Shown here one piece after another: positions 2,883-35,971 of a DNA stretch of 64,000 nucleotides. Made by a program: the position numbers and the translations under genes. The notes under the pieces are model-generated. The model did no database searches and was not told the origin of the DNA. It worked only from the letters and a program-made list of their open reading frames with translations. Position 1 is the first letter of the stretch. The number at the start of each line of letters is the position of its first letter. Location: positions 2,584-66,583 of the forward strand of contig CAVKLJ010000004.1 in NCBI GenBank assembly GCA_963657245.1, in the 5' to 3' direction. The DNA comes from Lachnospiraceae bacterium (GTDB lineage Bacteria > Bacillota_I > Bacilli_A > RFN20 > CAG-826).

Positions 2883-2900
2883 GTTACAAATCAATGTGTA

Positions 2901-3819: not shown

Positions 3820-3820
3820 T

Positions 3821-11158: not shown

Positions 11159-11193
11159 GATTTTTTGAATCACTTTTTCGAGAAGAGAAAAAC

Positions 11194-11224
11194 TTGCACT
11201 CAGTCGGGGGGGGGGAATTATTAT
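11194..11224 (+). promoter_or_regulatory. candidate promoter of the collagen-like lipoprotein gene, with a G10 tract in the spacer
   Basis: TTGCAC (11194-11199), 19 nt spacer containing G10, TATTAT (11219-11224). The ATG is at 11255. Confidence 0.4.
11206..11215 (+). repeat. homopolymeric G10 tract
   Basis: Ten consecutive G residues in an AT-rich intergenic region. Confidence 0.95.
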
Positions 11225-11254
11225 ATCCTCACAAGGAGTGAATCCAAAAAAACT

Positions 11255-13381
11255 ATGAAAAACAAAAACAAACTACTTTGCGTACTTGCTTTAAGCACAG
11301 GCGCATTACTCGGTCTTGCAAGCTGCCAAGACCAAAAAGACTCTTCTAGCAGCCAAGATGAAACACATCAAGTCTACCAAGCCTATTTAGCAAATGGCGG
11401 AACTCTCTCGTATGAGGAATGGCTTGCTACAATCAAAGGCGAAAAAGGTGACAAAGGTGACAAGGGCGACAAAGGTGATAAAGGCGACTCTGGCACCAAT
11501 GGTACAAATGGTGAAAAAGGCGAAAAAGGCGACAAAGGGGATAAAGGAGACAAAGGCGACAAGGGCGATGCCGGCGCCGACGGAGCCGATGGCCAAGACG
11601 GAAAAGATGGAGAAGATGGCGTCGATGGCAAAGATGGCGAGGACGGAAAGAACGGCGCTTCAGTCTTGACTGGCGAAGGCGTCCCTTCAACCGGGCTTGG
11701 CGCTGACGGCGACTCATACATCGACACCGAGACCTTCGACTATTATGTCAAGGCTGACGGTGAGTGGACGAAAGCCGGTAACCTCAAAGGCGCCACTGGT
11801 GCCCAAGGCGAGAAAGGCGAAAAGGGCGACGCTGGCGAAAACGGCACGAACGGAACGGACGGCAAAGACGGAAAAGATGGCCAAGACGGTGAAAAAGGCG
11901 ACAAGGGCGACAAAGGTGACGTCGGACGTATCGGATTTATGGTTAGAAGCGCAGATGAATTAGCTGCCGCTGTAACTATTGATAATTCATATATCGTCTT
12001 ATTGAGCGACATTACATTAACTGATCCACTATATATCGATTATGTCGATGTTATTATTAACTTAAACGGCAAAACAGTAACTTCATCAACAAAGAATACT
12101 GCCATTTCATCTTGGTATGAAAACGAAGTTACAATCATGAATGGTAAGGTTGTCTCTACAGATGGCAACGCATTAGGCTCATGCAAAGGATCATCGCTTA
12201 CATTAAAGAATGTTGAAGCCGAAGCAAAAGAAGCATGTGTCCTTCCTGAATGGAGCTCAACAGTTACAATCGATGGAGGAAAATACACTTCATACGACAA
12301 CTTCGTTGTTGGAACTAACGGAACAGTTGACAAAGACGACGATCATGGCCACAATGTCATCAATATTCTCGGTGGCGAATTCAATGCAAAAAGCGAAGAT
12401 GAAGATTTCATTGCATGCGGCATATATGTTGCAAATAGTGACACAGTTACTGTAACTGGTGGCACATTCAACATAGAAGATGGTGTTGGTATACTTGCTC
12501 GTTCTGGTAACACCAAGGTTTCAAAAGATGTTACATTCAAACACACACCAACAAAAGATGGAATAATTGCTGGATTTATTGGTGATGCCAAAGTTAACAT
12601 TCCTGCTGGTTATGACATCGTTAAGGATCTAATTTCTTCTTATCCAGGAGGAACACCTACTGTTGATGCAGACGAATCTTTTACAGAGAAAGCCTTAATT
12701 GATGAATATTATGTTAAGAGCGAGGCTGAATTTAGAGCGGCTGTTGCAACAGCAAAGGATGAAGAAATTAACGTTATTTTGGTTGATGATATCGAAGTCG
12801 AACAAAGAATTGATGTTAAGTGTGACGCATACATTGATTTGAATGACAAAACCGTCAAAATGAAGACTGGCAATACCACAGGTCAATGCTTCAATTTCAT
12901 TGGAGTTACCGCAGAACTTGCTAATGGTAAAATCTATGGTAAGGATTTAAGGCAAGATAAAACAACGCTTACAAGTAATGAAGGTGAATGCGATCCTGTT
13001 GTGGCGAGAAACGGTGCCAATGTAACTCTCACTGATATGTCTATTTCAATCAATAGCATCACTGGTGCTTGTGCTTACGCTTTTGCAAACAGCACAATTA
13101 CCATTGAAGGCGATAATGGAAAATACACTAATGATACGAGTGAAACGTATATACATAATACTGCTCTTAAAGCGCTCACTTTAAATCAAGCAAACGTTTC
13201 CGGACAATTAATATTTGTCAAAGGTGGTACCTTCACTGGTAACAATCCAGCAAACGGTGATGATGCAAGTGCAACAACTGGCGTAACAACCTTCCTTGCA
13301 GATGGCTATGTATCTACAGGCGGCCCAACAACAGTTGGTCCATTTACAATCGATGCACCATGGATTGTTAAAAAAGCATAA
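11255..13381 (+). CDS. surface lipoprotein with two collagen-like (Gly-X-Y) blocks and a duplicated C-terminal domain
   Basis: Signal peptide plus lipobox MKNKNKLLCVLALSTGALLGLASC. Blocks of 24 and 16 GXY triplets. Two paralogous modules (SADELAAAV...LNGKTVTS and SEAEFRAAV...LNDKTVKM). Confidence 0.8.
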   Translation: MKNKNKLLCVLALSTGALLGLASCQDQKDSSSSQDETHQVYQAYLANGGTLSYEEWLATIKGEKGDKGDKGDKGDKGDSGTNGTNGEKGEKGDKGDKGDKGDKGDAGADGADGQDGKDGEDGVDGKDGEDGKNGASVLTGEGVPSTGLGADGDSYIDTETFDYYVKADGEWTKAGNLKGATGAQGEKGEKGDAGENGTNGTDGKDGKDGQDGEKGDKGDKGDVGRIGFMVRSADELAAAVTIDNSYIVLLSDITLTDPLYIDYVDVIINLNGKTVTSSTKNTAISSWYENEVTIMNGKVVSTDGNALGSCKGSSLTLKNVEAEAKEACVLPEWSSTVTIDGGKYTSYDNFVVGTNGTVDKDDDHGHNVINILGGEFNAKSEDEDFIACGIYVANSDTVTVTGGTFNIEDGVGILARSGNTKVSKDVTFKHTPTKDGIIAGFIGDAKVNIPAGYDIVKDLISSYPGGTPTVDADESFTEKALIDEYYVKSEAEFRAAVATAKDEEINVILVDDIEVEQRIDVKCDAYIDLNDKTVKMKTGNTTGQCFNFIGVTAELANGKIYGKDLRQDKTTLTSNEGECDPVVARNGANVTLTDMSISINSITGACAYAFANSTITIEGDNGKYTNDTSETYIHNTALKALTLNQANVSGQLIFVKGGTFTGNNPANGDDASATTGVTTFLADGYVSTGGPTTVGPFTIDAPWIVKKA
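11438..11653 (+). repeat. collagen-like GXY repeat block 1 (24 triplets)
   Basis: GEK GDK GDK GDK GDK GDS GTN ... GED GKN, with repetitive GGYGAYAAR DNA. Confidence 0.9.
11789..11932 (+). repeat. collagen-like GXY repeat block 2 (16 triplets)
   Basis: GAT GAQ GEK GEK GDA ... GDK GDK GDV GRI. Confidence 0.9.
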
Positions 13382-17653: not shown

Positions 17654-20029
17654 TTAAGCGGCTAATTTAGCTTCTTGACCTTTTTTATAACGATCGTAGA
17701 AGTAGATGCCAACTCCGCCAAGGATAAGTAATCCTACTGGAACTGTCCACCCCCAAGCGGCATATTGGAAGGTAACATAGGTTAAGCAACCTAAGATATA
17801 AGATCCAAGGAGCCAGAAGAGGAGAGTTCCGATGTAATCGCGTCTTGAACTAAGTTCGCCTTTTGCAGTAGCCACAGAAGCAAAGCAAGGGATTGTTGTC
17901 ATGTTAAAGACAGCGAATGCGACTAAGGAAGCGGTGGTGATGTTTCCGCCTGTTGCGTTAGAAGCGGCAACAATTGCATTTAATCCTTCAAGGGCATCAT
18001 CTGGATCGATGTTTGCACCAATGCCAGGAAGAGCTGCTAATTGGGCTAAGACAGAAACAACGTTTTCTTTAGCGATGATACCTTGAACTGAGGCAACCGC
18101 ATATGTCCAAGCGTATTTACCGCCTTGAGCATTACCAAATCCCATTGGGGTAAATAATGGAGAGATGATCATGCCGATGTGGGCAAGGATAGAATCTGCA
18201 TCACTTAAGATGACGTCGACGTCACCTGCAGCAAACGCATCTTCTGTGAACATAGGAATGAATTGCCAAGATGGGGTAAAGCTAGACAAGAACCAAATAA
18301 TGACAGTTGAAGCAAAGATGATTGTGAATGCTTTCTTAAGATAATGTTTACCTCTGTCCCAAACGTGTAAGGCAAGGGCTTGTGGTTGAGGAAGGTGATA
18401 GGCAGGTAACTCCATGATGAATGGCGGAACCTTTTCACGCTGAGTGGTCTTATTCATTGCGATAACTGCAATGATGGCGACGACAACACCAAATAAGTAG
18501 ATTAAGAATGTGAACAAACCTTGATCAAGGCCTGAGGCGGCTGCAACTGCAGCGGCAATACAAACCAAGAATTCGGTTTTAGCTCCGCAAGTGAAGAATG
18601 GAATAACACGGATGGTTTTTGTTCTTTCTTTGTCGGAAGCAAGCGTACGGGTGTTGATCATGGCAGGAACGCCACAACCAAATCCCATGATCATTGGTAA
18701 GAAGGCTCTTCCTGAAACGCCGAAACGGCGGAAGATACGGTCTAATACGAAGGCAATACGTGCCATATATCCGGAATCTTCTAAGAAGGAGAAGAAGGCG
18801 AATAAGAGAAGAATTTGTGGAACGAATCCTAATACTGAAGCAATACCGTTAAGAACACCATCATAAACAAAGCCGGTTAGCCATTCAGGCGCATTGCAAT
18901 TAATGAGCAATTGTTTGATGCCAGTGCAAATAATGCCTTGGATACCGGAGTCATTGCCAGCACCAAAGAAATTTTGAAGGATTGCGCCAAGAGAATTAAA
19001 TCCATCTGCTGTAAAGAACAATTCTTTAAATGGATAGAAATCTTCTCCGTCGATTGTCCAATGGATGAATCCTGGATAGCCTTCGCCATAATCAAGACCC
19101 ATTGCGTGCATATAGAATAAATCGCCAGCAAATGTTAAGTGAAATATTAAGAAGAGGACAACGACCATGATTGGGAGAGCTGTCCATCTATTTGTTAAGA
19201 CTCTATCGATCTTATCGGAGAGAGATAATTTCTTCTTTTCTTGAGTGACTCCACCTTTACGATAGATTGCAAGTTCAGAGGTGATGTACTTATAACGCTT
19301 ATCCGCGCTATCAGCTTCAAAGCCTTCATGATCTTCAACCAATTCAGAAACCTCTTTATAAGCAAGAGGGTTCTTTTCTGCTTCGAGTTCATCGCCTTCT
19401 AAGGCTTTGATGGCATGGAAACGTGGGTTCAAAACTTCTTTATCTTCGTAGCTCTTTATTGCTTTTTCAATAAGTGCTGCATCTTCGCCTTTTGCCCAAA
19501 GCGAGGCACCTTCACGAGGGGTTTTTGAAGTTTTGACGGCTAAATCCATAAGCTCGTCAAGGTTTACTTTTCTTAAAGCAGAGATCTCGATTACTGGGAC
19601 TCCGAGTTTCTTAGAAAGAGCATTGGCATCAATTGATTGCTTATTGTTCTTAAGAGCGTCCATCATGTTTAAGGCAACGACGACTGGGACGTTCATTTCT
19701 AAGATTTGGGTGGTCATATAGAGGTTACGTTCTAAGTTTGTGGCATCCAAAACGTTAATGACCAAATCTGGTTTTTCTTCAAGGATATAGTTTCTTGAAA
19801 TAACTTCTTCTGGTGTATATGGAGAAAGGGAATAAATACCAGGAAGGTCAACGATTTCGACACCTTCCGTATCGCCTTTCTTTTTATAAACACCAGATCT
19901 CTTTTCAACCGTAACGCCAGGCCAGTTACCAACGTATGCTGTGCTGCCAGTTAAGGAATTAAAGAGGGTTGTTTTGCCGCAGTTAGGGTTACCTGCTAAG
20001 CAAAATCTTAATTTCTTTTCTTCGCTCAT
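17654..20029 (-). CDS. feoB: ferrous iron transporter FeoB
   Basis: G-domain GNPNCGKTTLFN, DLPG and NMMD motifs, plus a polytopic C-terminal domain. Confidence 0.95.
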   Translation of the reverse strand: MSEEKKLRFCLAGNPNCGKTTLFNSLTGSTAYVGNWPGVTVEKRSGVYKKKGDTEGVEIVDLPGIYSLSPYTPEEVISRNYILEEKPDLVINVLDATNLERNLYMTTQILEMNVPVVVALNMMDALKNNKQSIDANALSKKLGVPVIEISALRKVNLDELMDLAVKTSKTPREGASLWAKGEDAALIEKAIKSYEDKEVLNPRFHAIKALEGDELEAEKNPLAYKEVSELVEDHEGFEADSADKRYKYITSELAIYRKGGVTQEKKKLSLSDKIDRVLTNRWTALPIMVVVLFLIFHLTFAGDLFYMHAMGLDYGEGYPGFIHWTIDGEDFYPFKELFFTADGFNSLGAILQNFFGAGNDSGIQGIICTGIKQLLINCNAPEWLTGFVYDGVLNGIASVLGFVPQILLLFAFFSFLEDSGYMARIAFVLDRIFRRFGVSGRAFLPMIMGFGCGVPAMINTRTLASDKERTKTIRVIPFFTCGAKTEFLVCIAAAVAAASGLDQGLFTFLIYLFGVVVAIIAVIAMNKTTQREKVPPFIMELPAYHLPQPQALALHVWDRGKHYLKKAFTIIFASTVIIWFLSSFTPSWQFIPMFTEDAFAAGDVDVILSDADSILAHIGMIISPLFTPMGFGNAQGGKYAWTYAVASVQGIIAKENVVSVLAQLAALPGIGANIDPDDALEGLNAIVAASNATGGNITTASLVAFAVFNMTTIPCFASVATAKGELSSRRDYIGTLLFWLLGSYILGCLTYVTFQYAAWGWTVPVGLLILGGVGIYFYDRYKKGQEAKLAA

Positions 20030-20049
20030 AATGAACCTTTCTTTTTGAT

Positions 20050-20340
20050 TTACTTAGTCGTATTGATGTCGGTGACTTTAATAACGACATGTGAGGCTTC
20101 TTCTTTTCTTAATGTTAATTCGTAGCCTCTAAGCGTAATTTCAAGAGGGTCACCAAGTGGGGCTTTCTTTCTTAAGAAAACTTCTGCACCAGGAGTTAAT
20201 CCCATATCGAAAATACGTCTTTTGATCTTTCCCTCGCCTTGAATACGGAGGATGTCGCCAGACATTCCAACGCCAAGAACGTTAAGGGTGATCTCATCTC
20301 CTAACTTGATTTCGCTAGGTGTAATTTCCTTTTCTTCCAT
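20050..20340 (-). CDS. feoA: FeoA domain protein
   Basis: SH3-like FeoA pattern RRIFDMGLTPGAEV...GDPLEI. Confidence 0.8.
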   Translation of the reverse strand: MEEKEITPSEIKLGDEITLNVLGVGMSGDILRIQGEGKIKRRIFDMGLTPGAEVFLRKKAPLGDPLEITLRGYELTLRKEEASHVVIKVTDINTTK

Positions 20341-20357
20341 AATTTTTTCCTATATCT

Positions 20358-20576
20358 TTATATGACTTCAACCTGAATGGCTCTCGCCATGTTTCTATCG
20401 AGGGCAAGACGTGAGTCGCCAAGTCGCAAAATAACTCCGTTTGCTTCGCTTGACAAAAGGGTTATTTTCATCTCAGGAACGATGCCAAGTTCTCTTAGGT
20501 GTTTAATTGCTTTATCGTTTCCCACAAGTCTTACAACCGTAAGTTCTGTATCTGTTGGTGCAATCATTAAAGGCAT
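20358..20576 (-). CDS. feoA: FeoA domain protein
   Basis: LRELGIVPEMKITLL...GDSRLALDRNMA. Confidence 0.8.
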   Translation of the reverse strand: MPLMIAPTDTELTVVRLVGNDKAIKHLRELGIVPEMKITLLSSEANGVILRLGDSRLALDRNMARAIQVEVI

Positions 20577-20699
20577 AGTTAGTTACTCCTTACGTGGGTA
20601 TTATAGCCTTGCAAAATCATAAATCAACAAAAAGTTAGTAGATGATAACTAGAAATATTGTTAAAATATATTTACTTGATTCACAGAGAGGTTAAAACT

Positions 20700-21080
20700 A
20701 TGGCAATTGATGCATTAGAATCAGCAGAAGATTATCTTGAAAGAATATTGATGCTACAAAAACAAGGGATGACAGAAATCCACGCAGTGGATCTAGCTTC
20801 TTCCTTTGGTTATTCAAAGGCTTCGATTTCTATCGCTCTTCATAAATTAGAGGAGAAGGGCTATGTCGCACTTGGTTTAAAGAGCCAGCTTTATCTAACA
20901 CCAGCAGGCTATGAGATTGCTAAGAGGGTTTATGAGAAACACCAAGTCATCTCTTCCTTCCTTATGTCTATAGGAGTAGATAAAGAAATTGCTCTTAAAG
21001 ACGCATGCAGAATGGAACACTTCATTTCTGAAGAAACTTTTTCAGCTTTGAAAAAAGAATTAGAAAGCAAACAAAAATAA
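20700..21080 (+). CDS. DtxR/MntR-family metal-dependent transcriptional repressor (two-domain, no SH3-like domain)
   Basis: ESAEDYLERI...SKASISIALHKLEEKGYV...ACRMEHFIS. Divergent from the feo operon. ATG at 20700 preceded by a GAGAGG RBS. Confidence 0.85.
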   Translation: MAIDALESAEDYLERILMLQKQGMTEIHAVDLASSFGYSKASISIALHKLEEKGYVALGLKSQLYLTPAGYEIAKRVYEKHQVISSFLMSIGVDKEIALKDACRMEHFISEETFSALKKELESKQK

Positions 21081-22504: not shown

Positions 22505-23799
22505 TGATTGAGCGTTACGCCCCAAAGAAAATCGAAGAACTCTTTTCCGATGAAGCAAGATTCAATTCGTATCTTGAGATAGAAATTGCAGTCGTTGAAG
22601 GCTGGAATAAATTAGGCCTTGTTCCTGATTTAGATTTAGAAAAGATCCATCAAAACGCCAAAGTTGATGTTGCCCGTATCAAAGAAATTGAGACAATAAC
22701 CAAACACGACGTCGTTGCCTTTACTAGACAAGTAAGCGAAACTCTCGGAGAAGAAAGAAAATGGATTCATTATGGCTTAACTTCAACTGATGTTGTTGAT
22801 TCGGCCTTGGGCCTTCAATATAAAAAAGCCAATGAAATCATTGAAAAAGACTTTCTTTCTTTGATGGAATCGTTAAAGGAGAAGGCTTTGGAATACGAAT
22901 TTCAGCCATGTATGGCTAGAACACACGGCATGCATGCGGAAATATATTCCTTTGGCTTGAAATTTGCTTCTTTCTACGATGAAGCAAAACGTTCTTTGTC
23001 TTTCTTTAATGCGGCAAGGAAAGAAGTTGAAGCGGTAAAACTTTCTGGTGCGGTTGGAACATATGCCAATATCGATCCAAGCATCGAAAAATATGTTGCG
23101 GAAAAACTCGGCCTAACCAAACCAAGCGTTTCGACTCAAGTCCTTTCAAGAGATAGACATGAGGAATACGCTTCAGCAATGGTCGTGGCCTCTTCTTTGA
23201 TCGAAAAGATTGCCGTTGAAATTAGAAATCTCTCCCGCACCGAGATTGGCGAGCTTGAAGAAGGTTTCTCCAAAGGGCAAAAAGGCTCATCGGCAATGCC
23301 TCAAAAACGTAATCCGATATCCTCAGAAAACCTTACTGGCGCAGCTAGAATGATGAGAGGTTATTTGATTCCTATATTGGAAGATAACGCCCTCTATCAC
23401 GAAAGAGATATCTCCCACTCAATTGTTGAAAGAGTAAGCCTCATTGATATGATCGAATTATTCGATTACATGCTCATCAGAATGAAGAAAGTGGTGGATA
23501 ATCTCTCTATTTTCCCAACTAAGATGGAAGAAAACATCCAAAAGAGCCATGGAGCAATTTACTCGCAAAGAGCGATGAACGCTTTGATTGAAAAAGGCCT
23601 AACACGTGAAGAGGCTTATGACCTTGTTCAACCTCTTGCAATGAACTCTGTTACTAAAGGTATGGATTTCATCAACCAACTTATTATAAATAAGGATGTT
23701 CTAAAACACTTAAGCGAAAAAGATATCACCTCACTAACTAGCAACGAATATTACTTCAAAAACATTGATTATATTTATAAAGAAATAGGCTTGAAATAA
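22504..23799 (+). CDS. purB: adenylosuccinate lyase
   Basis: Fumarate-lyase signature GSSAMPQKRNP. TAATG overlap with purA. Confidence 0.95.
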   Translation: MIERYAPKKIEELFSDEARFNSYLEIEIAVVEGWNKLGLVPDLDLEKIHQNAKVDVARIKEIETITKHDVVAFTRQVSETLGEERKWIHYGLTSTDVVDSALGLQYKKANEIIEKDFLSLMESLKEKALEYEFQPCMARTHGMHAEIYSFGLKFASFYDEAKRSLSFFNAARKEVEAVKLSGAVGTYANIDPSIEKYVAEKLGLTKPSVSTQVLSRDRHEEYASAMVVASSLIEKIAVEIRNLSRTEIGELEEGFSKGQKGSSAMPQKRNPISSENLTGAARMMRGYLIPILEDNALYHERDISHSIVERVSLIDMIELFDYMLIRMKKVVDNLSIFPTKMEENIQKSHGAIYSQRAMNALIEKGLTREEAYDLVQPLAMNSVTKGMDFINQLIINKDVLKHLSEKDITSLTSNEYYFKNIDYIYKEIGLK

Positions 23800-23814
23800 G
23801 CCTTTTCTTTTTAT
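23787..23814 (+). terminator. terminator overlapping the purB stop codon
   Basis: AGGCTT-gaaat-AAGCCT stem followed by TTTTCTTTTT. Confidence 0.6.
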
Positions 23815-23936
23815 TTAAATAAAAGTTAGGCAAATAAAACTTAGATTTTTCCGAAGAAATTAGGCATTTTAGTTTGCTTAACATTGCCAATTTTCATAGT
23901 AAAATAATTTTTGAATTGAGAAAGGAATTTTTTTCT

Positions 23937-24185
23937 ATGGAAACGAGTAAAGAAACTGCTCAAGTATGTATTCGTTGCGCTCGTTGTATTCACGCTTGCC
24001 CATTAGGCTTAAATCCAGTCAATATCATGACGACGATGAAAAGCATGCCTGTCGACAAAGCAAAGATTAAATTACTTAATCCTTCCGTTTGTGATGAATG
24101 CAAGAAATGTAACGATGTTTGCCCGAGCAATATTGATTTAGCAACAATTGTGAAGAGAGCTAAGATTGTTGCCAAACTCCCTTAA
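23937..24185 (+). CDS. 82-aa 2x[4Fe-4S] ferredoxin-like protein corresponding only to the C-terminal domain of RnfC
   Basis: CIRCARCIHACP ... CDECKKCNDVCPSNIDL. The long inter-motif spacer and the CPSNI tail are RnfC-like. RBS AAAGGA. First gene of the rnf-type operon. Confidence 0.7.
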   Translation: METSKETAQVCIRCARCIHACPLGLNPVNIMTTMKSMPVDKAKIKLLNPSVCDECKKCNDVCPSNIDLATIVKRAKIVAKLP

Positions 24186-24197
24186 TGAGGTATTAAC

Positions 24198-25361
24198 ATG
24201 AGTGTAGAAGTAACTAAAACTAATTCTGCAGAAGTAGTTGCCGCACCAGCTCCTAAAAAAGCCCATAAGCAATCTGTCGAATGGATGCTATATGATGTGC
24301 TTATTGCTCTTGCTCCAACTGTTATTTATGCAGTTCTAATGTATGGTGTATATGCCATACGTAACATTTTGATCCCTGCCGCGACAATGTTTATCGCAGA
24401 AATGGTCTTTGTTGTTATCAAAAATCGCAAAGCCCTATTTAGCAAGGATGAAAAAACCAAGAAATCATTCTTTGATGTATTAAGCATCACTGATATTGTT
24501 TCTCCATTAATTTCAGGAATTATCTTTGGCTTGATGGTCTCAAATAGAGATACAGATCCTGCTGGACTTATCTATTTCATTTTGATTGTTTCATCTTTAT
24601 TCGGGATTATCTTTGGAAAACTCTGTTTCGGTGGTTTAGGAAAGAATATCTTCAACCCAGCTGCTGTTTCCTTTGTTTTCATGCTTGTTTGCTTTAATTC
24701 CAAATTCACTGGCACATATCACCTTAATGCTTGGGGAATTTCTTTCTTAGGAAACGCCTCATTCGAAGCTGGTGCAACACCATTAGCCAATGGATTCAAT
24801 GCAAGCCTATATAGCTTAGATAACATCAAAGCCTTATTCCTTGGCCAAGTTAATGGTGGAATTGGCGAATCTTGCAAGATTCCTCTTCTTATTGGGCTTG
24901 TCTATTTATTGGTTAGAAGAGATATTGATTGGAAGACAATCGTTTCCTTCCTTTTGATGTTCTTAGCAATGTCCCTTGTTGCCGGATTATTCTTCTTAGG
25001 CAAAAAGGACGTGAATCCTCTTTACTACATGCTTTATCAATTGCTTAGCGGTGGCGTCTTCTTCGGAATGACGTACATGATAAGCGAACCTGTAACAATG
25101 CCTCTTACTTCTCCTAGCAGAGTTATGTACGGCATGGTTATTGCAATTATTGTCGTATTCATCAGAACCTTTGCCTCTGCTCCTGAAGGAATGGCCTATG
25201 CAATCCTTATGGGCAACGCACTTGGTTGCTTTATCGACTACTACAAATGGAGCCAAACAAAATTCAGTTGGAAGAGCTGGGTGGCAATTGCTGCAATTGC
25301 AGTCGTCGGTCTTGCCATCTTTGCCTGGTGCATGAATGGCTTCAATTACGGAGGAAATTAA
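24198..25361 (+). CDS. rnfD: Rnf complex subunit D
   Basis: NQR2/RnfD-type polytopic protein. AGATPLA (flavinylation-site motif), NIFNPAA, and SGGVFFGMTYMISEPVT. Confidence 0.9.
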   Translation: MSVEVTKTNSAEVVAAPAPKKAHKQSVEWMLYDVLIALAPTVIYAVLMYGVYAIRNILIPAATMFIAEMVFVVIKNRKALFSKDEKTKKSFFDVLSITDIVSPLISGIIFGLMVSNRDTDPAGLIYFILIVSSLFGIIFGKLCFGGLGKNIFNPAAVSFVFMLVCFNSKFTGTYHLNAWGISFLGNASFEAGATPLANGFNASLYSLDNIKALFLGQVNGGIGESCKIPLLIGLVYLLVRRDIDWKTIVSFLLMFLAMSLVAGLFFLGKKDVNPLYYMLYQLLSGGVFFGMTYMISEPVTMPLTSPSRVMYGMVIAIIVVFIRTFASAPEGMAYAILMGNALGCFIDYYKWSQTKFSWKSWVAIAAIAVVGLAIFAWCMNGFNYGGN

Positions 25362-25362
25362 T

Positions 25363-26829
25363 ATGAGTGAAGAAATTAAAAACACTACTGTTCCTTCAGA
25401 AGAAAAGAATGATTGGAAGAAATGGCTCAAAGTTGGTGGAATCCTTTGCGCAATTGCTGGAGCAAGCGCCCTCGTTTTGACCTCTCTTAATTTATTAACT
25501 GCCCCAATCATCGAAGAAAACAATGCCAAAAAACAATCTGGTGGTTATCGTGAGATTTTCTCCAATTGGGCGGCAAACTCTGATCCGGTCGCAATTGAAG
25601 GCAATGACAATCTAGCCGAATATTGCATCGCATATTCTGATACTGCCAAAACAAATCAAATTGGCTACATCTATACTTCCAAGACCTTGGCTGTCAAATC
25701 CTTTGGTAACGTCAAAGCCATGGTTGGTATTTCTGGTGAAACTGATTCACCAGTCTTAGGAAAGATTTATCTTGTTGAAAATTCCCTTTCTTACAAGACA
25801 ACTCTTGAAAGCGGATATATCCTTCCATATAACTCCAACCCAGGCGATACAACACTCAATAACGTTAAGTGCGGCGCAACCTTTGGTGCTGAAGCGATTA
25901 AAGGAATAATCAATGCTGCAAGAGATCACTATTCTTCAATCGGAGATAGTTTCAAAGAAGACCTTGCTGATGATATCAAACAAATCTGGGGTGAAAATTC
26001 CGGATATACGGTTGATAATTCCGAAACCAACAACGTTTCTGGAACAACTTATGTCAAGAAATCATATTCATTCTATGAAGATGATACGATGACAGGCGAA
26101 ATCGGTCGTCTTTATTCTGCAAAATACAAGGGAGATGCAGGGGATATTTACATTACTGTGTCTTTCAATGAGAAGAATGAGTTAGGCAAACTTGTCGTTA
26201 CAAAAGACACATTAGCTGATAACACGTCTCTTAATAACTATGTTTCCGCTTATAACTCCAACCCATCAGAAGAAACGCTTAATGCCACAAATGGTGCAGA
26301 TTCTGAAGCTGTTAAAGCAATGGTAAGCGAAGCTAAGACGACTTTAACAACTGCTGGCGGATTGAAATCTTCATCTTCATATTTTAAAGATGTTATTGCT
26401 TCTAGCGCCTATTCTGAGGTGAGCGAAGCTACTGCTCTTACAAAAGATGCGGCTGAAAAAGTCAATGTTCTTCGTTATTGGACGTTCTCTAAGACCGAGA
26501 CAACCGAATCGGAAGAGGAGAAAGTTACAGAAGTTGCAAAAGTCTATAAGATCCAAGCAACCATGGAAGCAAAGAGCTATACGACAATCGAATCCGATAC
26601 AGTTTACTTATTAACAATCACCGGTTCTAAGGATTCACCTGCTTTAGGTAAGATGACCTTATTAAAGAATGAAGCTGGTGGCGGTCAAGTTTCTGATATT
26701 GAAAGTTACTTCACAAATTTTGATGGCTCGCAAACAAGCGAAGGCGTTAACGGAAGTGGAGCAACCTACACCTTGAAAGCCGTTTGGGAAGGCATAGAGA
26801 AGGCAAAAGCTCTCTATAGCGCAGAATAA
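25363..26829 (+). CDS. rnfG: Rnf complex subunit G, expanded: TM anchor plus three tandem FMN_bind-like modules
   Basis: N-terminal TM helix and LTAPII motif. Each of the three modules contains an LGK(I/L/M) motif; the modules end in VKCGATFGAEAI, TNGADSEAV and GSGATYTLKAV. 488 aa. Confidence 0.8.
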   Translation: MSEEIKNTTVPSEEKNDWKKWLKVGGILCAIAGASALVLTSLNLLTAPIIEENNAKKQSGGYREIFSNWAANSDPVAIEGNDNLAEYCIAYSDTAKTNQIGYIYTSKTLAVKSFGNVKAMVGISGETDSPVLGKIYLVENSLSYKTTLESGYILPYNSNPGDTTLNNVKCGATFGAEAIKGIINAARDHYSSIGDSFKEDLADDIKQIWGENSGYTVDNSETNNVSGTTYVKKSYSFYEDDTMTGEIGRLYSAKYKGDAGDIYITVSFNEKNELGKLVVTKDTLADNTSLNNYVSAYNSNPSEETLNATNGADSEAVKAMVSEAKTTLTTAGGLKSSSSYFKDVIASSAYSEVSEATALTKDAAEKVNVLRYWTFSKTETTESEEEKVTEVAKVYKIQATMEAKSYTTIESDTVYLLTITGSKDSPALGKMTLLKNEAGGGQVSDIESYFTNFDGSQTSEGVNGSGATYTLKAVWEGIEKAKALYSAE

Positions 26830-26843: not shown

Positions 26844-27602
26844 ATGGAAAAAACAAATATTTCACGTTCACAACATAAAGAGAACTTCCTTAATCCAATT
26901 TGGAAACAAAATCCTCTCTTTGTCTTATTGCTTGGTACTTGCCCAGCTTTAGCCGTTACAACAACGATTGAGAACGCCATTGGTATGGGTATTCTCTTTA
27001 CCTTCGTCTTGGTTGGCTCAAGTGTTTTGGTTTCTCTCCTACGTAAGGTCATTCCTGAAGAAGTTGAGACTCCAGCTTATATCATCATCATCGCTACATT
27101 TGTTACTATCGTTAAAATGTTAGCGGAAGCCTTTGTTCCTGAACTTTATACAGGACTTGGTGTCTTTATTTCCTTACTTGTAGTTAACTGCATCGTTTTA
27201 GGAAGAGCTGAAGCTTTTGCTAAGAAGAATACGGTTTATGACTCTTTCCTTGATGCGTTAGGAAATGGCGTTGGCTATATTATCGCCATCTTAATCATTG
27301 CCGCAGTTCGTGAGATCTTAGGAACTGGTATGATTACAGTTGGCGCAGTCTTCACCTTTATTCCAAAGACATCCCTTCATATTTTGAAATTCGATAATCT
27401 CGATCTTTCAATCCCTCTCTTTGCTAAGCCAGCCGGCGGCTTCATCGTCTATGGCGTTATCGAAGCTATAATTGCCGCTAAAAACATTAGCAAACAACAA
27501 AAAGAAGCTGCAGCAAAGAAAGCGGCTCTCTTAAAGGCCCAAGCCGAAAAAGCAGCTGCCGCTAAGACTTTAGCTGCTAACACTCCTAAGGAGGCAAAAT
27601 AA
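26844..27602 (+). CDS. rnfE: Rnf complex subunit E (with an Ala/Lys-rich C-terminal tail)
   Basis: NPLFVLLLGTCPALAVTT and VVNCIVLGRAEAFA. Extra tail QQKEAAAKKAALLKAQAEKAAAAK. Confidence 0.9.
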   Translation: MEKTNISRSQHKENFLNPIWKQNPLFVLLLGTCPALAVTTTIENAIGMGILFTFVLVGSSVLVSLLRKVIPEEVETPAYIIIIATFVTIVKMLAEAFVPELYTGLGVFISLLVVNCIVLGRAEAFAKKNTVYDSFLDALGNGVGYIIAILIIAAVREILGTGMITVGAVFTFIPKTSLHILKFDNLDLSIPLFAKPAGGFIVYGVIEAIIAAKNISKQQKEAAAKKAALLKAQAEKAAAAKTLAANTPKEAK

Positions 27603-28192
27603 TGACTGCTACAAATTTATTTACAGCATTCTTGCTTGCAATCGTTTCATCTTTATTGATCAACAACGTTGTTCTTTCTAGATTCTACGGAATTTGCTCC
27701 TACCTAGGTGTTTCCACGAAAGTGAAATCGTCCGTTGGTATGGGCATTGCCGTTGTCTTTGTCATCATGCTTGCCTCTTTGGTTTGCTACCCAATTTATA
27801 ATTTCGTTCTTGTTCCAGCAGGCTTAGCCTTCTTGGATACAATCGTTTATATTTTGGTTATCGCTTCCTTGGTTCAACTTGTTGCTCTTGTTATCAAGAA
27901 ATATTCCCCATCTCTTTATAAGAGCTTAGGCATCTACTTGCCTCTTATCACCACAAACTGCGCAGTTCTTGGCGTTGTCCAAGAAAACAACACTCTTTCC
28001 TTTGCCAATTCCATGGCTAACGCCATTGGTACAAGCGTCGGCTTCCTTGTCATGATCGTTCTTTTCTCAACAATCAGAACAAGATTAGATTCAACCGACT
28101 CTCCAAAGGCTTGGAAGGGTTTGCCTCTTGCTTTGATTACTGCCGCCATCATGGCTATGGCCATAATGGGATTAAGTGGCATGGTCGCATAA
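27602..28192 (+). CDS. rnfA: Rnf complex subunit A
   Basis: INNVVLSRFYGIC, LPLITTNCAVLGV. TAATG overlap with rnfE. Confidence 0.9.
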   Translation: MTATNLFTAFLLAIVSSLLINNVVLSRFYGICSYLGVSTKVKSSVGMGIAVVFVIMLASLVCYPIYNFVLVPAGLAFLDTIVYILVIASLVQLVALVIKKYSPSLYKSLGIYLPLITTNCAVLGVVQENNTLSFANSMANAIGTSVGFLVMIVLFSTIRTRLDSTDSPKAWKGLPLALITAAIMAMAIMGLSGMVA

Positions 28193-28193: not shown

Positions 28194-28424
28194 ATGCAAA
28201 GAATTCATTACATTCTCATCGCGATCGCGATTCTTGTGGCATTGATTGCAATATTCATCATCAGTTTCGTTGCATATCGTCGTACACCCGCTCCAAAAGG
28301 GTGCGAAGATCTCAAACCTGAATCTGATATGTGCTCGCAATGCCAAAAGACATCGTGTGCATTCTACGAAGAATACCATAAAGAAAACGATGAGAAGGAT
28401 GAGCAAAATAAAGGAGATAAATGA
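28194..28424 (+). CDS. 76-aa single-TM protein with a cytoplasmic 4-Cys cluster, embedded in the rnf operon
   Basis: TM helix IHYILIAIAILVALIAIFIISFVAY, then RR, then C-x11-C-x2-C-x4-C and an acidic tail. Starts 1 nt after the rnfA stop. ATGA overlap with the next gene. Confidence 0.5.
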   Translation: MQRIHYILIAIAILVALIAIFIISFVAYRRTPAPKGCEDLKPESDMCSQCQKTSCAFYEEYHKENDEKDEQNKGDK

Positions 28425-28753
28425 ATATGGGTCCATTAACAATACTCTGGGGTGTCTTAGTTCTTGCCGGACTTGGCCTTGTGCTTGGCTTCTTACTTGC
28501 ATTAGCCGCTAAATTCCTCCATGTTGAAGAAGATAAGCGTATCAAAGAAGTGGAAAGCATGTTACCAGGTGCTAACTGCGGTGCTTGCGGATATGCCGGT
28601 TGCCACGATTTAGCCGAAGCCTTAGTTACAGGCGCAGCAAAGAAAGTTACAGCTTGCAAAGTCGGTAAAAAAGAGAAGAATTTTGATCCAATTGTAGCCT
28701 ATATGAAGGCTACTCCAGGACCAGATGGAAAAATTACTGAAGTAAGTGAATAA
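28421..28753 (+). CDS. rnfB: truncated-type RnfB: TM helix plus N-terminal Fe-S cluster domain only, no ferredoxin domains
   Basis: LPGANCGACGYAGCHDLAEAL...ACKVG (CxxCx4Cx16C) after one TM helix. 110 aa. Confidence 0.75.
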   Translation: MNMGPLTILWGVLVLAGLGLVLGFLLALAAKFLHVEEDKRIKEVESMLPGANCGACGYAGCHDLAEALVTGAAKKVTACKVGKKEKNFDPIVAYMKATPGPDGKITEVSE

Positions 28754-28813: not shown

Positions 28814-28889
28814 GGGACTTTAGCTCAGCTGGGAGAGCGCGTGCTTTGCAAGCATGAGGTCGCCGGTTCGATCCCGGTAAGTTCCACCA
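28814..28889 (+). tRNA. tRNA-Ala (anticodon UGC)
   Basis: GGGACTTTAGCTCAGCTGGGAGAGC...CTTTGCAAG...AAGTTCCACCA. G3:U70 identity pair present. Confidence 0.95.
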
Positions 28890-28896
28890 AATTAAT

Positions 28897-28973
28897 GGCT
28901 GAGTAGCCCAGTTGGTTAGAGCAACCGGCTCATACCCGGTATGTCGAGGGTTCGAGTCCCCCCTCAGCCACCA
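28897..28973 (+). tRNA. tRNA with CAU anticodon (elongator Met, or Ile2 if lysidinylated)
   Basis: GGCTGAGTAGCCCAGTTGGTTAGAGCAACCGGCTCATACCCGGT...CTCAGCCACCA. Not initiator-like: no three G-C pairs in the anticodon stem. Confidence 0.85.
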
Positions 28974-29015
28974 TTAATTGAATATACCTTCATTAAGGAA
29001 GAAAAATAAGAATTT

Positions 29016-29039
29016 AAGTGGTAAATATGCCACTTTTTT
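29016..29039 (+). terminator. rho-independent terminator after the tRNAs
   Basis: AGTGG-taaatat-CCACT stem followed by TTTTTT. Confidence 0.6.
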
Positions 29040-29078: not shown

Positions 29079-32000
29079 ATGTGGTGTATGATGCCAACAA
29101 GTAATGAAGCAAACAACAACTTTGATGGTAAAATCGACAAGTTTCTTAAACAAACGTTAGAAAGTTCATCTTTGTGTTTTGGCATTTTTGATACGAATTC
29201 TGGCAAGGCTGAAACTATTCTTTTATCGAAAGGTTTCAAAACGAATTTCAATAAAAACAATCCTTCTAGTAAAGAAACAATCTTTGGGATTTCAGTTGTC
29301 AACGTCCATAAAGATGATGTAGAAGGCTTCAAGGAAAAAGCATCTTCCTTAGTTAACGGGGGAGATGAACTAGATTTATATTTCCGTTTCCATTCATCAT
29401 CTAATAGCCTTTATCATTCAATCCACGCCTTAGGAAGACGTATCAAACTTGAAGGAGATGATTTCCTTTTTGTTTGGTATAACGATTTAGCAAGGATGGA
29501 TGATGATACGTTTGTCTTTGATGAAAGAGCCTATGATAACACCGTTAGCATCATTAAAAAATATTATGATGACGAATTAACTGGGTTGCCAAGGATGGCC
29601 AATTTCGTTCATCACGTCCAAGAACTGTTATCGACCCCATATATTGATGAGAAGAATTATGTTCTTCTTGCCTTTGACTTAACGGGTATGAAAGCCTTCA
29701 ACATGAAATATGGCTTCGAAAACGGGGACCGTTTGATCATCTCTATTGCCGACATTTTGAAAAAACATTTCGAAACTCAATCAATTTCACGTTTTGGCGA
29801 GGATCATTTCTACGTTTTAACCGAGAATGATGAGATTGAAAAAACAATCAAAGAGATTTTTGAAGACGTTAAAAAAGCAAATGATGGCAATACCTTACCT
29901 ATTCGTGTTGGCATCTATAAAGACAAAATAACGGATATTTCGGTTGCTTGCGATAAGGCGAAAACGGCCGCGGATGTTGGAAGACATTCCTATATTTCCC
30001 ATTTCACGTATTTTGATGAAAATCTATCAGAAGAAATCGAAAAACGTGATTTTATTTTAAATAATTTAGAAAATGCCATAGAAAAAGGCCATATTCAGCC
30101 ATATTATCAACCAATCGTTAGAACATTGAATAATAAGGTTGCAGATGAAGAGGCCCTTGCCCGTTGGAAAGATCCTGAGAAAGGATTATTAAATCCTGCA
30201 GATTTCATCTCAATTCTTGAAGATGCAGGAATCATCTATAGATTAGATTTATGTATCCTAGATTGCGTCCTTGCCGACTTAAAAAAGAAAAAAGACAAAG
30301 GCCAATATCTAACTCCAGTTTCAATTAATATTTCTCGTTATGATTTTGAATCGTGCAATATCGTTGAACTAGTTTCAAAGAAAGTCACGGAAAGTGGCTT
30401 TTCTCCCGACTTAATCATTATCGAAATAACTGAATCTGCCGCTTTCTATAACAAAGCATTGCTTATCGAACAAGTGAATAGATTCCATGAATGTGGCTTT
30501 AAAGTCTGGGTTGATGATTTTGGCAGTGGCTATTCTTCCTTAAACAGCCTTCAAGAATTCTCTTTCGATGGAATGAAAATAGATATGGGTTTCTTATCTT
30601 CTTTTAAAGAGAATAAGAAAACTCCAAGTATCATCAAAGAAACAATCAAACTTGCGGAAAAAATCGGTATAGATACAATTTGCGAAGGCGTTGAAACAAA
30701 AGAAGAATTGGATTTCTTGCGTGAAGCTGGATGCGATAAAGTCCAAGGTTACTATTTCTCTAAGCCAAATCCAATCGATTATATAATTTCTGGACAGACT
30801 CCTTTAAAGAGAGAAAATCCTGAAGAGCGTGAATACTATCGTGAAATAGCTCTTTCTTCACTTAGTGAGCCTGAATCAAATGGCGATAAAGGCACCATGG
30901 CAGAGCGCGCCTTATCTGGACCTAGTGTTGGAATCATCGAAGTAAAGGATAACACATTCCGCCTCTTAAGAACGACAAAGGCTTTTAAGAGCGCGTGTGA
31001 AATCGAAGGGTTTATTTCTCCTAATGAGCAATTTGATGGTGGCTATCCATTCATTCGAACACCTGATTCTTTCTTCTCTGAAGCAATATATAGGGCTTGT
31101 GATACAGGAAATTGGGAAGAAACATCCTTCTATTCCGAAAGACGCATAACCACGTTCTTCTTTAGATTAGTTTCTACAAATCCTGTTACTAAGGCTAAGT
31201 CTGTCATGTGCATCATGTCTTATGCCAATAAGGGCAGTGATAAAAAAGTCCAAAGAGAAGCTGAACTAATCAATTTAGAAACTATCAATGTTGATGATTT
31301 CCCATTACCTGTAATCATCATCGAACTTTGTAACGACGCCGGAAAAGAGCGTCTTAAATGTTTGAACCTTAATAAAGCGTTCTCTGAATTAGCATCGGTA
31401 ACTCCTGAAGAAGCGAAAAACTCTAACTATCTTGAAAGTGTCTTTGATAAAAAGAATGAGTGGAAGAAACTAATAAAGCAAGTTCTTTCCGTTAGAAGAC
31501 CTTTAAAGGGAGAGACTTTCCATGAGCCAACGCGCCTATGGATGAATTTCATAATTTCTCCTTGTTTAAGTGAGAATTGCGTGTGTGTGACCATCCTTCA
31601 AGATAGCAGCTCTTTCTCCTTATTTGAAAAAAGAGCAATTAACTGCGATGATGAAGCCTATAGAATTGCTAGTATCTTAAAACAAGATGGCAATCATTCA
31701 AAAAAGATCGATGATGCCCTAAATGAATTTGGTCGCTCATCTAATGCGGATGACGCTTTGGTGATTGAAATAAATGGAAACGTCATTGAACATTGCCACG
31801 AGTGGAACAAACCAGCTTTCAATCCTTTATCTAGAGAAATTGATGAAGCTGAATTTGTTAATTTACTAGCCTTTTTAAGAAAACGTTTTAAAGAAGAAAC
31901 CTATGTTTCCGTTAAAGCCATTGAAGAATTGAAAATAAATGGTGGAACATTCTATGATTGGTGTAGAGCACATGGGGTAAAACGTTTCTTGATTTTCCCA

Positions 32001-33317
32001 TTATTCTCCCAAGGAAAATTAATCGGTCTCTTCATTGTTAACAATTACGAAATTAATAATGCCGAATTTACAAGAAAGTTGATGGAAAAGCTTTCTGGAG
32101 TTTTCTCTTCGCAGATAAGTTTATCTTACAAAGATAAAGAGAAAAACGAAAAAACACATGGATTTCCTAAGTATTTTTCCGATTCTAGCGACTTGAAGAC
32201 CAAAATTAAACGTTTCTTTGGAATTGGCAAAAGAAGTGCGTCGGAAAATATCTATAACGATCGTAGCAACATCGAAATAGGGCGACTTACATCTGCCTTC
32301 CTTGGTTTGTTTGAACTTGTGTTTGCAATTGTCTTTACCATTAATTTCTATTTAAACAAAGATAAACAACCAGATAACATCTACTATCAAAGCACATGGG
32401 TTTGGAGCCACTTGGCTTTATACGCTTTTGCATTTGTCGTAAACGCCCTCTTCTTCCTTTATTGTGAGTTCTATTATCATGATAAATTCACTAAAGTTAA
32501 GAAATTATCTTTAAAAACCCATGTTGTGATCGATGCATATGTATTGTGCATAATCACTTTCGGAATGCTTATCTCTATTATGGACGTGCAAAATGGCGGA
32601 CAACCAATAACGTTCGTTACAATGCTACTATATACAATGCTGATTTTCCGCTTATATCCGATCAAGAGCATCATCTATCTATTCGTCATGAATGTTTTAT
32701 TTGTCATTCTCCTTTGCGAAGTTCCGATGGTCAACCTTCCTATGGATAAAATAAACATGAGCTTGGATATAGGGGCATTTGCTAACATCATTTGTGTATT
32801 TATTCTTGAATGCGTTGCTTCATCTCTTCTTTATAAAGCCAGAATGAGAGCGGCCGCACACTGTATTGTCGATACTCTTTCAGGCACTAAATGCCGCTTT
32901 GCCTTACAAGAAGATTTCAAGCACTTAGAAGGAAAACGAGTTGTTGTCATGATGCTTGATGTCGATGATTTTAAGTTACTTAATGACATCTACGGTCACC
33001 AAGCGGGGGATGAAGTCATTAACGAAGTTGGCCAAGCTTTAATTAAGACCTTTGGTGTTGAATCGGTTTACCGTTATGGCGGAGATGAATTCCTTGTTAT
33101 CAAAAAAGGCGATTTATTCTCTTTTGAAAAACATTTATTTAACCTACAACGTAATATAAGTTCAGTAACCTCACTTGATATGAACGTTACCTTCTCGGCT
33201 GGCTATAAAGAGCATCTTGTTGGAGAAAATGCTTCTCTAGATGAAGTGATTAGAGAGTCTGACTTGCTCTTATACGAAGCTAAGAAACGTGGCAAGAATC
33301 AAATCGTCAAAGGATAA
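29079..33317 (+). CDS. multidomain c-di-GMP signalling protein: PAS-like, degenerate GGDEF, EAL, PAS/GAF-like region, ~6 TM helices, canonical GGDEF
   Basis: First cyclase motif reads RFGEDHF. EAL motifs EEALARW, EITES, DDFGSGYSS, EGVETKEE and QGYYFSKP. C-terminal YRYGGDEFLVI. The start codon is uncertain. Confidence 0.8.
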   Translation: MWCMMPTSNEANNNFDGKIDKFLKQTLESSSLCFGIFDTNSGKAETILLSKGFKTNFNKNNPSSKETIFGISVVNVHKDDVEGFKEKASSLVNGGDELDLYFRFHSSSNSLYHSIHALGRRIKLEGDDFLFVWYNDLARMDDDTFVFDERAYDNTVSIIKKYYDDELTGLPRMANFVHHVQELLSTPYIDEKNYVLLAFDLTGMKAFNMKYGFENGDRLIISIADILKKHFETQSISRFGEDHFYVLTENDEIEKTIKEIFEDVKKANDGNTLPIRVGIYKDKITDISVACDKAKTAADVGRHSYISHFTYFDENLSEEIEKRDFILNNLENAIEKGHIQPYYQPIVRTLNNKVADEEALARWKDPEKGLLNPADFISILEDAGIIYRLDLCILDCVLADLKKKKDKGQYLTPVSINISRYDFESCNIVELVSKKVTESGFSPDLIIIEITESAAFYNKALLIEQVNRFHECGFKVWVDDFGSGYSSLNSLQEFSFDGMKIDMGFLSSFKENKKTPSIIKETIKLAEKIGIDTICEGVETKEELDFLREAGCDKVQGYYFSKPNPIDYIISGQTPLKRENPEEREYYREIALSSLSEPESNGDKGTMAERALSGPSVGIIEVKDNTFRLLRTTKAFKSACEIEGFISPNEQFDGGYPFIRTPDSFFSEAIYRACDTGNWEETSFYSERRITTFFFRLVSTNPVTKAKSVMCIMSYANKGSDKKVQREAELINLETINVDDFPLPVIIIELCNDAGKERLKCLNLNKAFSELASVTPEEAKNSNYLESVFDKKNEWKKLIKQVLSVRRPLKGETFHEPTRLWMNFIISPCLSENCVCVTILQDSSSFSLFEKRAINCDDEAYRIASILKQDGNHSKKIDDALNEFGRSSNADDALVIEINGNVIEHCHEWNKPAFNPLSREIDEAEFVNLLAFLRKRFKEETYVSVKAIEELKINGGTFYDWCRAHGVKRFLIFPLFSQGKLIGLFIVNNYEINNAEFTRKLMEKLSGVFSSQISLSYKDKEKNEKTHGFPKYFSDSSDLKTKIKRFFGIGKRSASENIYNDRSNIEIGRLTSAFLGLFELVFAIVFTINFYLNKDKQPDNIYYQSTWVWSHLALYAFAFVVNALFFLYCEFYYHDKFTKVKKLSLKTHVVIDAYVLCIITFGMLISIMDVQNGGQPITFVTMLLYTMLIFRLYPIKSIIYLFVMNVLFVILLCEVPMVNLPMDKINMSLDIGAFANIICVFILECVASSLLYKARMRAAAHCIVDTLSGTKCRFALQEDFKHLEGKRVVVMMLDVDDFKLLNDIYGHQAGDEVINEVGQALIKTFGVESVYRYGGDEFLVIKKGDLFSFEKHLFNLQRNISSVTSLDMNVTFSAGYKEHLVGENASLDEVIRESDLLLYEAKKRGKNQIVKG

Positions 33318-35895: not shown

Positions 35896-35971
35896 GGTCC
35901 ATTAGCGCAGTGGTTAGAGCGAACGACTTATAATCGTTAGGTCTCAGGTTCAAACCCTGAATGGACCACCA
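35896..35971 (+). tRNA. tRNA-Ile (anticodon UAU)
   Basis: GGTCCATTAGCGCAGTGGTTAGAGCGAACGACTTATAATCGTT...ATGGACCACCA. Anticodon loop CTTATAA. Confidence 0.8.

Follow-up and report, generated by a model that had tools for sequence, protein, structure and literature searches.

What becomes of the Rnf complex when the place of RnfC, the subunit that defines its chemistry with nicotinamide adenine dinucleotide (NAD(H)), is taken by a protein of 82 residues? This question is raised by a stretch of 64,000 nucleotides from a genome assembly of a Lachnospiraceae bacterium (GCA_963657245.1, contig CAVKLJ010000004.1; referred to here as the window), which carries an rnf operon in the order rnfC′-rnfD-long rnfG-rnfE-rnfA-small Cys-rich open reading frame (ORF)-short rnfB. 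The first gene of the operon, named rnfC′ here, runs on the plus strand from an ATG at 23937 to a TAA at 24183-24185, and its 82-residue product contains the motif CxxCxxCxxxCP twice (residues 11-22 and 52-63), with 30 residues in between. We propose, with a probability of roughly 0.65, that this gene is rnfC reduced to its ferredoxin domain and that RnfC′ relays electrons between RnfD and a cytoplasmic partner other than NAD(H).

Anaerobes rely on Rnf as a central enzyme of energy conservation. In the canonical path, electrons travel from ferredoxin through the clusters of RnfB, the Fe centre of RnfA/E, the flavin mononucleotide (FMN) of RnfG and the FMN and riboflavin of RnfD, and from there they reach the two [4Fe-4S] clusters of the ferredoxin domain of RnfC, the FMN of RnfC and, finally, NAD+; the RnfC cluster nearest to the membrane lies 11.7 Å from the riboflavin of RnfD (PMC9588780; PMC12174285). 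The ferredoxin domain of the C. tetanomorphum RnfC corresponds to residues 359-435 (Vitt et al., PMC9588780).

The 82-residue protein is an orthologue of this C-terminal domain. Pfam recognizes in it only generic Fer4 families, and the domains that characterize the N-terminal part of RnfC, that is, RnfC_N (PF13375), Complex1_51K (PF01512) and SLBB, are absent, while the C-terminal ferredoxin domain with its two CxxCxxCxxxCP motifs is present. The top three NCBIfam matches are all RnfC models (TIGR01945, NF003454 and NF041837), aligned at their C-terminal positions 353-432 with E-values from 1.9e-13 to 5e-11; TIGR01945 is matched at positions 356-429 of 435 (E 1.9e-13). The next family follows at E 4e-7, and FdxA_fam (NF058577), a model of stand-alone ferredoxins, gives 23.6 bits against a cut-off of 65 (E 4.3e-5). 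Among sequences of the PDB, the ORF aligns with residues 368-430 of 8ahx_C, 365-432 of 9eri_C and 362-427 of 7zc6_C, all of which are RnfC chains. In a search of 1.84 billion representative proteins with a profile made from 11 close homologues, the best match beyond its own cluster was a canonical RnfC of 437 residues (P0011, E 2.4e-22) with RnfC_N, Complex1_51K, SLBB and Fer4. Sixty of the 149 best relatives are at least 380 residues long and 58 contain Complex1_51K, and 26 further, shorter ones are RnfC fragments with a GGxMxG motif upstream.

Structure prediction and phylogeny lead to the same subunit. An AlphaFold model based on an alignment of 85 sequences reached a predicted local distance difference test (pLDDT) score of 82.8 (a shallow alignment of 11 sequences gave 44.6 and an unusable model), and its five best fold matches in the PDB, obtained with Foldseek, are all RnfC chains (template modelling scores of 0.72-0.76), with a root-mean-square deviation of 1.5-1.6 Å over 68-72 columns for four A. 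vinelandii and A. woodii chains; the dicluster domains of CdhA, HdrC and SdhB come next. In a neighbour-joining tree of 106 dicluster domains, the 82-residue proteins form a single clade (48 of 50 bootstraps) that is nested in an exclusive group with the RnfC tails of Mollicutes type, with no intruders in the point estimate and two at most in 43 of the 50 replicates. The spacing between the two motifs is 28 residues in 50 of 59 diverse RnfC proteins and either 28 or 30 in those of Mollicutes type. The preliminary description of this stretch had taken the ORF for a free-standing RnfC C-terminal domain rather than an ordinary ferredoxin, and had called its motif spacing and tail RnfC-like; both views are borne out, given that NCBIfam, the profile search, the tree and the fold search all lead to RnfC, and that the 30-residue spacing and the ...RAKIVAKLP tail are common to the RnfC of sister lineages.

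The gene is present in 14 loci, the window and 13 loci of public assemblies (several of these assemblies stem from one sequencing project), with 62-100% identity and always with exactly 82 residues. The 13 further loci belong to metagenome-assembled genomes from gut or rumen that are labelled as uncultured 'Mollicutes', 'Bacillales' or 'Erysipelotrichaceae', and in each of them the same operon follows the 82-residue gene; one additional locus (L029; related loci are designated by L numbers) also has an 82-residue gene upstream of rnfD. In the sister lineages, the slot directly upstream of rnfD, which is the one that rnfC′ occupies, is filled by a full-length RnfC of 436-439 residues (L017, L018, L019 (Ca. 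Enteromonas), L027 and L028), in which RnfC_N, Complex1_51K, SLBB and Fer4 were recognized by a Pfam scan (L017, L018) or by precomputed Pfam matches (L027, L028). L017, L018, L027 and L028 also have the short rnfB and the small Cys-rich ORF, and the contig of L019 ends within rnfG. Only the last residue of RnfC′ is left out of its alignment with residues 355-435 of the L017 RnfC (51% identity, E 5e-20), which takes in the ...RAKIVAKLP tail. RnfD identities fall into two well-separated ranges: the clusters sampled beside the 82-residue gene are among those at 57% or more, and the ones beside a full-length rnfC are among those at 45% or less. We infer that the clade's ancestor lost the first 355 codons in one deletion that ended at the domain boundary. 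Given that the long RnfG and the short RnfB also co-occur with a full-length RnfC (L018, L027), both of these features are older than the truncation. As to the records themselves, near-identical copies of the Mollicutes-type locus (L004, L005, L006 and L011-L013) are found under the titles Alistipes communis, Prevotella sp., Escherichia coli, Bacteroides uniformis, Hallerella and Sodaliphilus, which are evidently mislabelled bins, and in L028 a bAvd-like gene and a reverse transcriptase, resembling a diversity-generating retroelement, lie upstream of the full-length rnfC (1450-3209).

The 82-residue gene is under purifying selection and is not decaying. Over 59 pairs, the ratio of nonsynonymous to synonymous substitution rates (dN/dS) is at most 0.157 (median 0.067), at dS values of up to ~1.9, and 40 of the 82 alignment columns, as well as all eight cysteines, are invariant. 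Other short matches of the search were discarded as free-standing RnfC tails, none of them having a clean architecture: L020 is a split rnfC, with an N-terminal ORF immediately upstream of an 81-residue tail ORF, and L024 is a decaying one, which consists of low-identity fragments of the whole gene. An archaeal protein encoded beside sdhAB (P0041) was also discarded, and the contigs of two more short matches (L025, L026) are too short for a judgement.

Between the stop codon of purB (23797-23799) and the ATG of rnfC′ lies a non-coding leader of 137 nt, and the conserved blocks in its alignment over 14 related loci are two promoter hexamers and a ribosome-binding site (Table 1). The predicted promoter, TTAACA/TAAAAT, matches the consensus at 10 of 12 positions (promoter scan), and both hexamers are kept in L004-L014, even in L014, whose upstream gene is not purB. 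A longer frame that starts with TTG at 23874 was rejected, as most of the other loci have in-frame stops upstream and the protein is not conserved there. Searches with three full-length RnfC sequences (tblastn), at a threshold of E<0.1, uncovered no remnant of the N-terminal part, neither in the window nor in any related locus; at this threshold, residues 1-354 of the L017 RnfC were likewise unmatched in the window and the truncated-clade loci. These results agree with most of what the preliminary description had said about the surroundings of the ORF. Its ribosome-binding site (AAAGGA) was recovered as GAAAGGA at 23920-23926 and is kept in 12 related loci; the distance of 137 nt to purB, whose stop lies inside a terminator hairpin, was verified in the sequence and by a terminator scan; the absence of an RnfC N-terminal remnant upstream holds, both in the tblastn searches and in view of the stops in the upstream frame; and the judgement that the ORF is not a decay remnant fits a dN/dS of ~0.07, a constant length and a conserved promoter and ribosome-binding site. 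The promoter needs to be corrected: one does exist upstream, but the hexamers that had been named (TTGCTT/TAGTAA) overlap the conserved ones, which are shifted by 3-4 nt. No Rfam family, riboswitch included, was found in the leader. A direct repeat (TTAGGCA...TTAGGCA, ~34 nt apart) lies at 23826-23866 on the plus strand, and the equivalent region of L011-L013 is a hairpin followed by a T-run; this repeat or hairpin might act in regulation or as a second terminator.

The fate of the N-terminal module can also be followed in RnfD, whose N-terminal arm is described as 'completely buried inside RnfC' in the structure from C. tetanomorphum (PMC9588780). The arm motif SPH[IL]R occurs in 98 of 102 RnfD of other lineages, while all 18 RnfD clusters of the truncated clade lack it and have a variable stretch rich in Ala, Pro and Lys in its place (24198-24300 of the window, plus strand); the loss of the motif correlates with the loss of the RnfC N-terminal module. 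RnfC′ itself has changed where 74 full-length relatives show little or no variation: most of the truncated clade has K, K, D, P and T instead of G56, L57, Y60, T63 and D70, and A and R instead of G15 and S16. Such substitutions would be expected if a buried face had become exposed or had gained a new partner. Taken together, the loss of the arm motif and the changes on the surface of RnfC′ argue, if indirectly, that the loss of the N-terminal module is real.

Other explanations of this locus have been considered. An ordinary soluble 2x[4Fe-4S] ferredoxin, recruited beside rnfD and not descended from RnfC, would account for the generic Pfam assignment and for the fact that the best PDB sequence match by E-value is the polyferredoxin MvhB. 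The MvhB score, however, sums repeated domains, the best single one reaching 27 bits versus 33 for RnfC, and the lead of the RnfC models in NCBIfam, the agreement of tree and fold search, and a position, tail and 30-residue spacing common to sister-lineage RnfC make such a recruitment, which found no support when tested, very improbable. Hardly credible at all, and equally unsupported, is a pseudogene remnant or an artefact of assembly or annotation: the product is indeed very short and scores 49.7 bits against the RnfC cut-off of 245.95, but a gene of exactly 82 codons recurs in 14 loci (13 besides the window) and again in L029, its dN/dS is ~0.07 at dS values of up to ~1.9, its promoter and ribosome-binding site are conserved, and an rnfC that is truly decaying (L024) looks different. 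A split gene, with the NADH/FMN module encoded elsewhere and reassembling with the 82-residue domain, would leave the enzyme a ferredoxin:NAD+ oxidoreductase. Split or frameshifted rnfC genes do occur (split in L020, decaying in L024), and 64 kb of the genome were read. In the split cases, though, the N-terminal part lies directly upstream, and here there is none in the window or in the related loci (up to ~16 kb); in addition, the RnfD arm motif has been lost in 18 of 18 clusters of the clade, and surface positions that are invariant in full-length RnfC now carry charged residues. A profile of four N-terminal modules retrieved 2278 matches, and the best 120 of them are all full-length proteins from other lineages, which is weak evidence and says little about this clade. 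On balance, a split gene appears quite unlikely.

RnfC′ could also be a structural relic that mainly stabilizes or caps RnfD off the main electron path, like the cofactor-less NqrA in NQR, with electrons moving from ferredoxin through the short RnfB, RnfA/E and the multi-flavin RnfG to acceptors outside the cell. This role would agree with a tripled RnfG that has two flavinylation-type motifs; multi-flavinylated RnfG has been proposed to feed extracytosolic acceptors (PMC8238504), and NqrA is a homologue of RnfC that persists without a redox role (PMC12174285). It is nonetheless unlikely, for eight invariant ligand cysteines and a dN/dS of ~0.07 exceed the needs of a simple cap (NqrA lost its cluster ligands), the flavin site of RnfD has also been kept, and a long RnfG accompanies full-length RnfC in L018 and L027, hence it is not tied to the truncation. 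Several findings do weigh against our proposal that RnfC′ is an electron relay derived from RnfC. The alignment behind the structural model consists mostly of RnfC sequences, and the Foldseek E-value is modest (6e-3), as expected for 82 residues. The sequence covered is 64 kb of one genome plus the related loci, so that an N-terminal module might lie elsewhere. Neither a Pfam scan of the window's ORFs of at least 150 residues nor tblastn with the ApbE of L017 revealed an ApbE gene, in the window or in the truncated-clade loci, and the flavinylation of RnfD and RnfG needs ApbE. Finally, the window encodes HypB, a nickel-insertion GTPase, followed by a 975-residue NAD(P)-binding Fe-S flavoprotein of the GltD family with extra ferredoxin motifs (3145-6748, plus strand). 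This flavoprotein (3821-6748), the one neighbour that is a candidate redox partner, might have taken over as an NAD(P)H module, but the idea was set aside, as a conserved linkage is unsupported: a 55%-identical orthologue lies directly after rnfB in one sister species only (L001-3, L008).

From the orthology with the RnfC tail, the clean truncation, the purifying selection, the position in the operon and the correlated changes in RnfD, all of which the sequences show, the following course of events can be proposed. The ancestor of a clade of uncultured Mollicutes-like Bacilli from gut and rumen would have lost ~355 codons, and with them the barrel-sandwich, NuoF-like FMN/NADH and SLBB domains, and the remaining 82 codons would have acquired their own start codon and ribosome-binding site behind the conserved promoter and would have been kept as the first rnf gene. 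RnfC′ is predicted to bind two [4Fe-4S] clusters and to sit on the cytoplasmic face of RnfD, where it would transfer electrons one at a time between the flavins of RnfD and a partner in the cytoplasm; the identity of this partner and the direction of the electron flow are matters of proposal. Since the FMN/NADH module is gone, this partner cannot be NAD(H) acting at RnfC, and the operon encodes no NAD(H)-binding domain, which argues against NAD+ as a substrate at RnfC; the pump of this clade probably no longer uses NAD(H) at this site. Candidate partners would be small one-electron carriers (ferredoxin, flavodoxin) or a separate soluble oxidoreductase. The complex would thus be a stripped-down Rnf core with bare Fe-S domains as its cytoplasmic ends, RnfB being reduced and RnfG tripled, and the multi-flavin RnfG might offer an additional route to acceptors outside the cell; alternatively, RnfG might be the main exit, with RnfC′ as a second entry point or a structural cap.

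A more specific version, which we put forward only tentatively, is that of an Rnf without any pyridine-nucleotide site, in which the two clusters of RnfC′ and the single one of the short RnfB (RnfB′) would make up a ferredoxin-only respiratory module. Electrons from ferredoxin or flavodoxin could then leave through the triple-domain, doubly flavinylated RnfG to acceptors beyond the wall-less cell, or else they could pass between two different one-electron carriers while ions are pumped; a new docking site would be provided by the surface around the second cluster (CDECKKC), which is rich in lysine and has been remodelled.

In comparison with the RnfC of C. tetanomorphum (7zc6_C), A. woodii (9eri_C) and A. 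vinelandii (8ahx_C), RnfC′ has the same two-cluster domain in sequence, spacing and predicted fold, but it lacks the N-terminal 355 residues, so it has neither an FMN site nor an NAD(H) site. It descends from the ferredoxin domain of RnfC and would work like it, yet it falls outside the curated criteria of the RnfC family. There is a likeness to NqrA of the Na+-NQR, where an RnfC-type subunit on a homologue of RnfD (NqrB) has also been reduced in evolution and NAD(H) chemistry has proved dispensable. The reduction of NqrA went in the opposite direction, with the large N-terminal fold kept and all cofactors lost (PMC12174285), whereas RnfC′ lost the fold and kept the cluster sites. A further likeness is found with the gene clusters described by Meheust et al. 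(2021; PMC8238504), which include remodelled Rnf-type genes and RnfG with several FMN-binding domains. In the 'NQR/RNF-like' systems of Actinobacteria and the Candidate Phyla Radiation (CPR) that this paper also describes, RnfD is joined to an NAD domain of NqrF type and the second pathway is missing; in the operon studied here, by contrast, RnfA, RnfD, RnfE, RnfG and an anchored RnfB are all present, and no NAD-binding domain is attached. Where the paper treats RNF, no truncated RnfC is mentioned, and a literature search of incomplete coverage, which extended to Rnf in RF39/Enterosoma, brought up no account of an rnf operon whose RnfC consists of the ferredoxin domain. The helical dicluster domains of HdrC, SdhB and CdhA belong to the same general fold class as RnfC′; they are less similar to it than RnfC is, both in structure and in sequence, and their partners and gene context differ.

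An operon that selection maintains with RnfC as a ferredoxin domain and RnfB as its first cluster domain amounts to a natural minimal Rnf, one that shows which parts of the cytoplasmic modules are dispensable; it also implies that a widespread group of uncultured gut bacteria with reduced genomes exchanges electrons with a partner that is not NAD(H). It further provides a small natural construct for studies of the electron hand-off between RnfD and RnfC. For annotation it is a warning, as the gene may be called a generic ferredoxin, or the genome may be scored as having a complete Rnf and hence ferredoxin:NAD+ coupling.

Table 1. Coordinates of the rnf operon and its control elements in the window.
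Feature	Position	Strand	Remarks
purB intrinsic terminator	23787..23813	+	hairpin 23787-23803 enclosing the purB stop, then T-run; terminator scan and sequence
Predicted sigma-70-type promoter of the rnf operon	23878..23905	+	TTAACA 23878-23883, 16 nt, TAAAAT 23900-23905
Ribosome-binding site GAAAGGA	23920..23926	+	10 nt before the rnfC′ ATG; kept in 12 related loci
rnfC′	23937..24185	+	82 aa; C-terminal 2x[4Fe-4S] ferredoxin domain of RnfC
rnfD	24198..25361	+	387 aa; 12 nt after the rnfC′ stop; Pfam PF03116, E 8e-62
Elongated rnfG-like gene	25336..26829	+	488-497 aa; three RnfG-type repeats; ~3x usual length
rnfE	26844..27602	+	252 aa; both conserved Cys (C33, C116)
rnfA	27602..28192	+	196 aa; both conserved Cys (C32, C120)
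Small ORF	28194..28424	+	76 aa; one transmembrane helix and four-Cys tail
Short rnfB	28421..28753	+	110 aa; transmembrane helix and single-cluster PF04060 FeS domain; four-Cys site kept
tRNA-Ala, tRNA-Met, terminator-like hairpin (29016-29035)	28814..29035	+	

The membrane core of Rnf is present in the window: RnfD has kept the Thr column for FMN attachment and lost the N-terminal SPH arm motif, and the Cys pairs of RnfA and RnfE, the four-Cys site of RnfB and the motifs of RnfG are all in place. The true start of rnfG is likely the ATG at 25363 (MSEEIKN...), in agreement with the N-terminus of the L014 orthologue. Compared by phmmer with the 171-residue RnfG of L017, the long RnfG matches at residues 28-199 (E 1e-20), at 239-333 (E 1e-7) and, weakly, at 435-483. 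Flavinylation-type motifs are found in repeat 1 (CGAT, ~residue 178) and repeat 3 (SGAT, 474), while the middle repeat has NGAD; the motif of the L017 RnfG is also CGAT. The small Cys-rich ORF belongs to a family of 66-80 residues (...YRRTPAPKGCE..., with cysteines C37, C47, C50 and C55) that occupies the slot between rnfA and rnfB in all related loci, with truncated and with full-length rnfC; it matched no known family in Pfam, and it may be an extra Rnf subunit.

The short RnfB, which lacks the poly-cluster ferredoxin domains that take up electrons from ferredoxin, is unusual for an Rnf in its own right. It has 105-118 residues, with only the helix and PF04060, wherever it is readable (the window, L001-L003, L014, L015, L017 and L027-L029), and these include loci with a full-length rnfC. 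Transfer RNA genes directly follow rnfB, and the terminator-like hairpin behind them is probably the end of the transcription unit.

Upstream of the operon lie purA, purB, a gene for a DtxR-type repressor and feoAAB. The iron genes, that is, feoB, two feoA (minus strand) and the DtxR-type iron-dependent repressor, occupy positions 17654-21080, beside purAB-rnf, and feo genes flank the rnf operon also in L001 and L027, an iron-uptake locus thus being repeatedly a neighbour of an Fe-S-rich operon. Immediately behind the tRNA genes that follow the rnf operon, a protein of 1412 residues with EAL, GAF and GGDEF domains is encoded (29079-33317, plus strand). At 35896-35971 (plus strand) there is a tRNA-Ile with the anticodon TAT (UAU); in many bacteria, AUA is read instead by a lysidine-modified CAU tRNA. 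Farther upstream, at 11165-13381 on the plus strand, the window encodes a protein of 738 residues with collagen triple-helix repeats (Pfam Collagen, E 8.5e-20).

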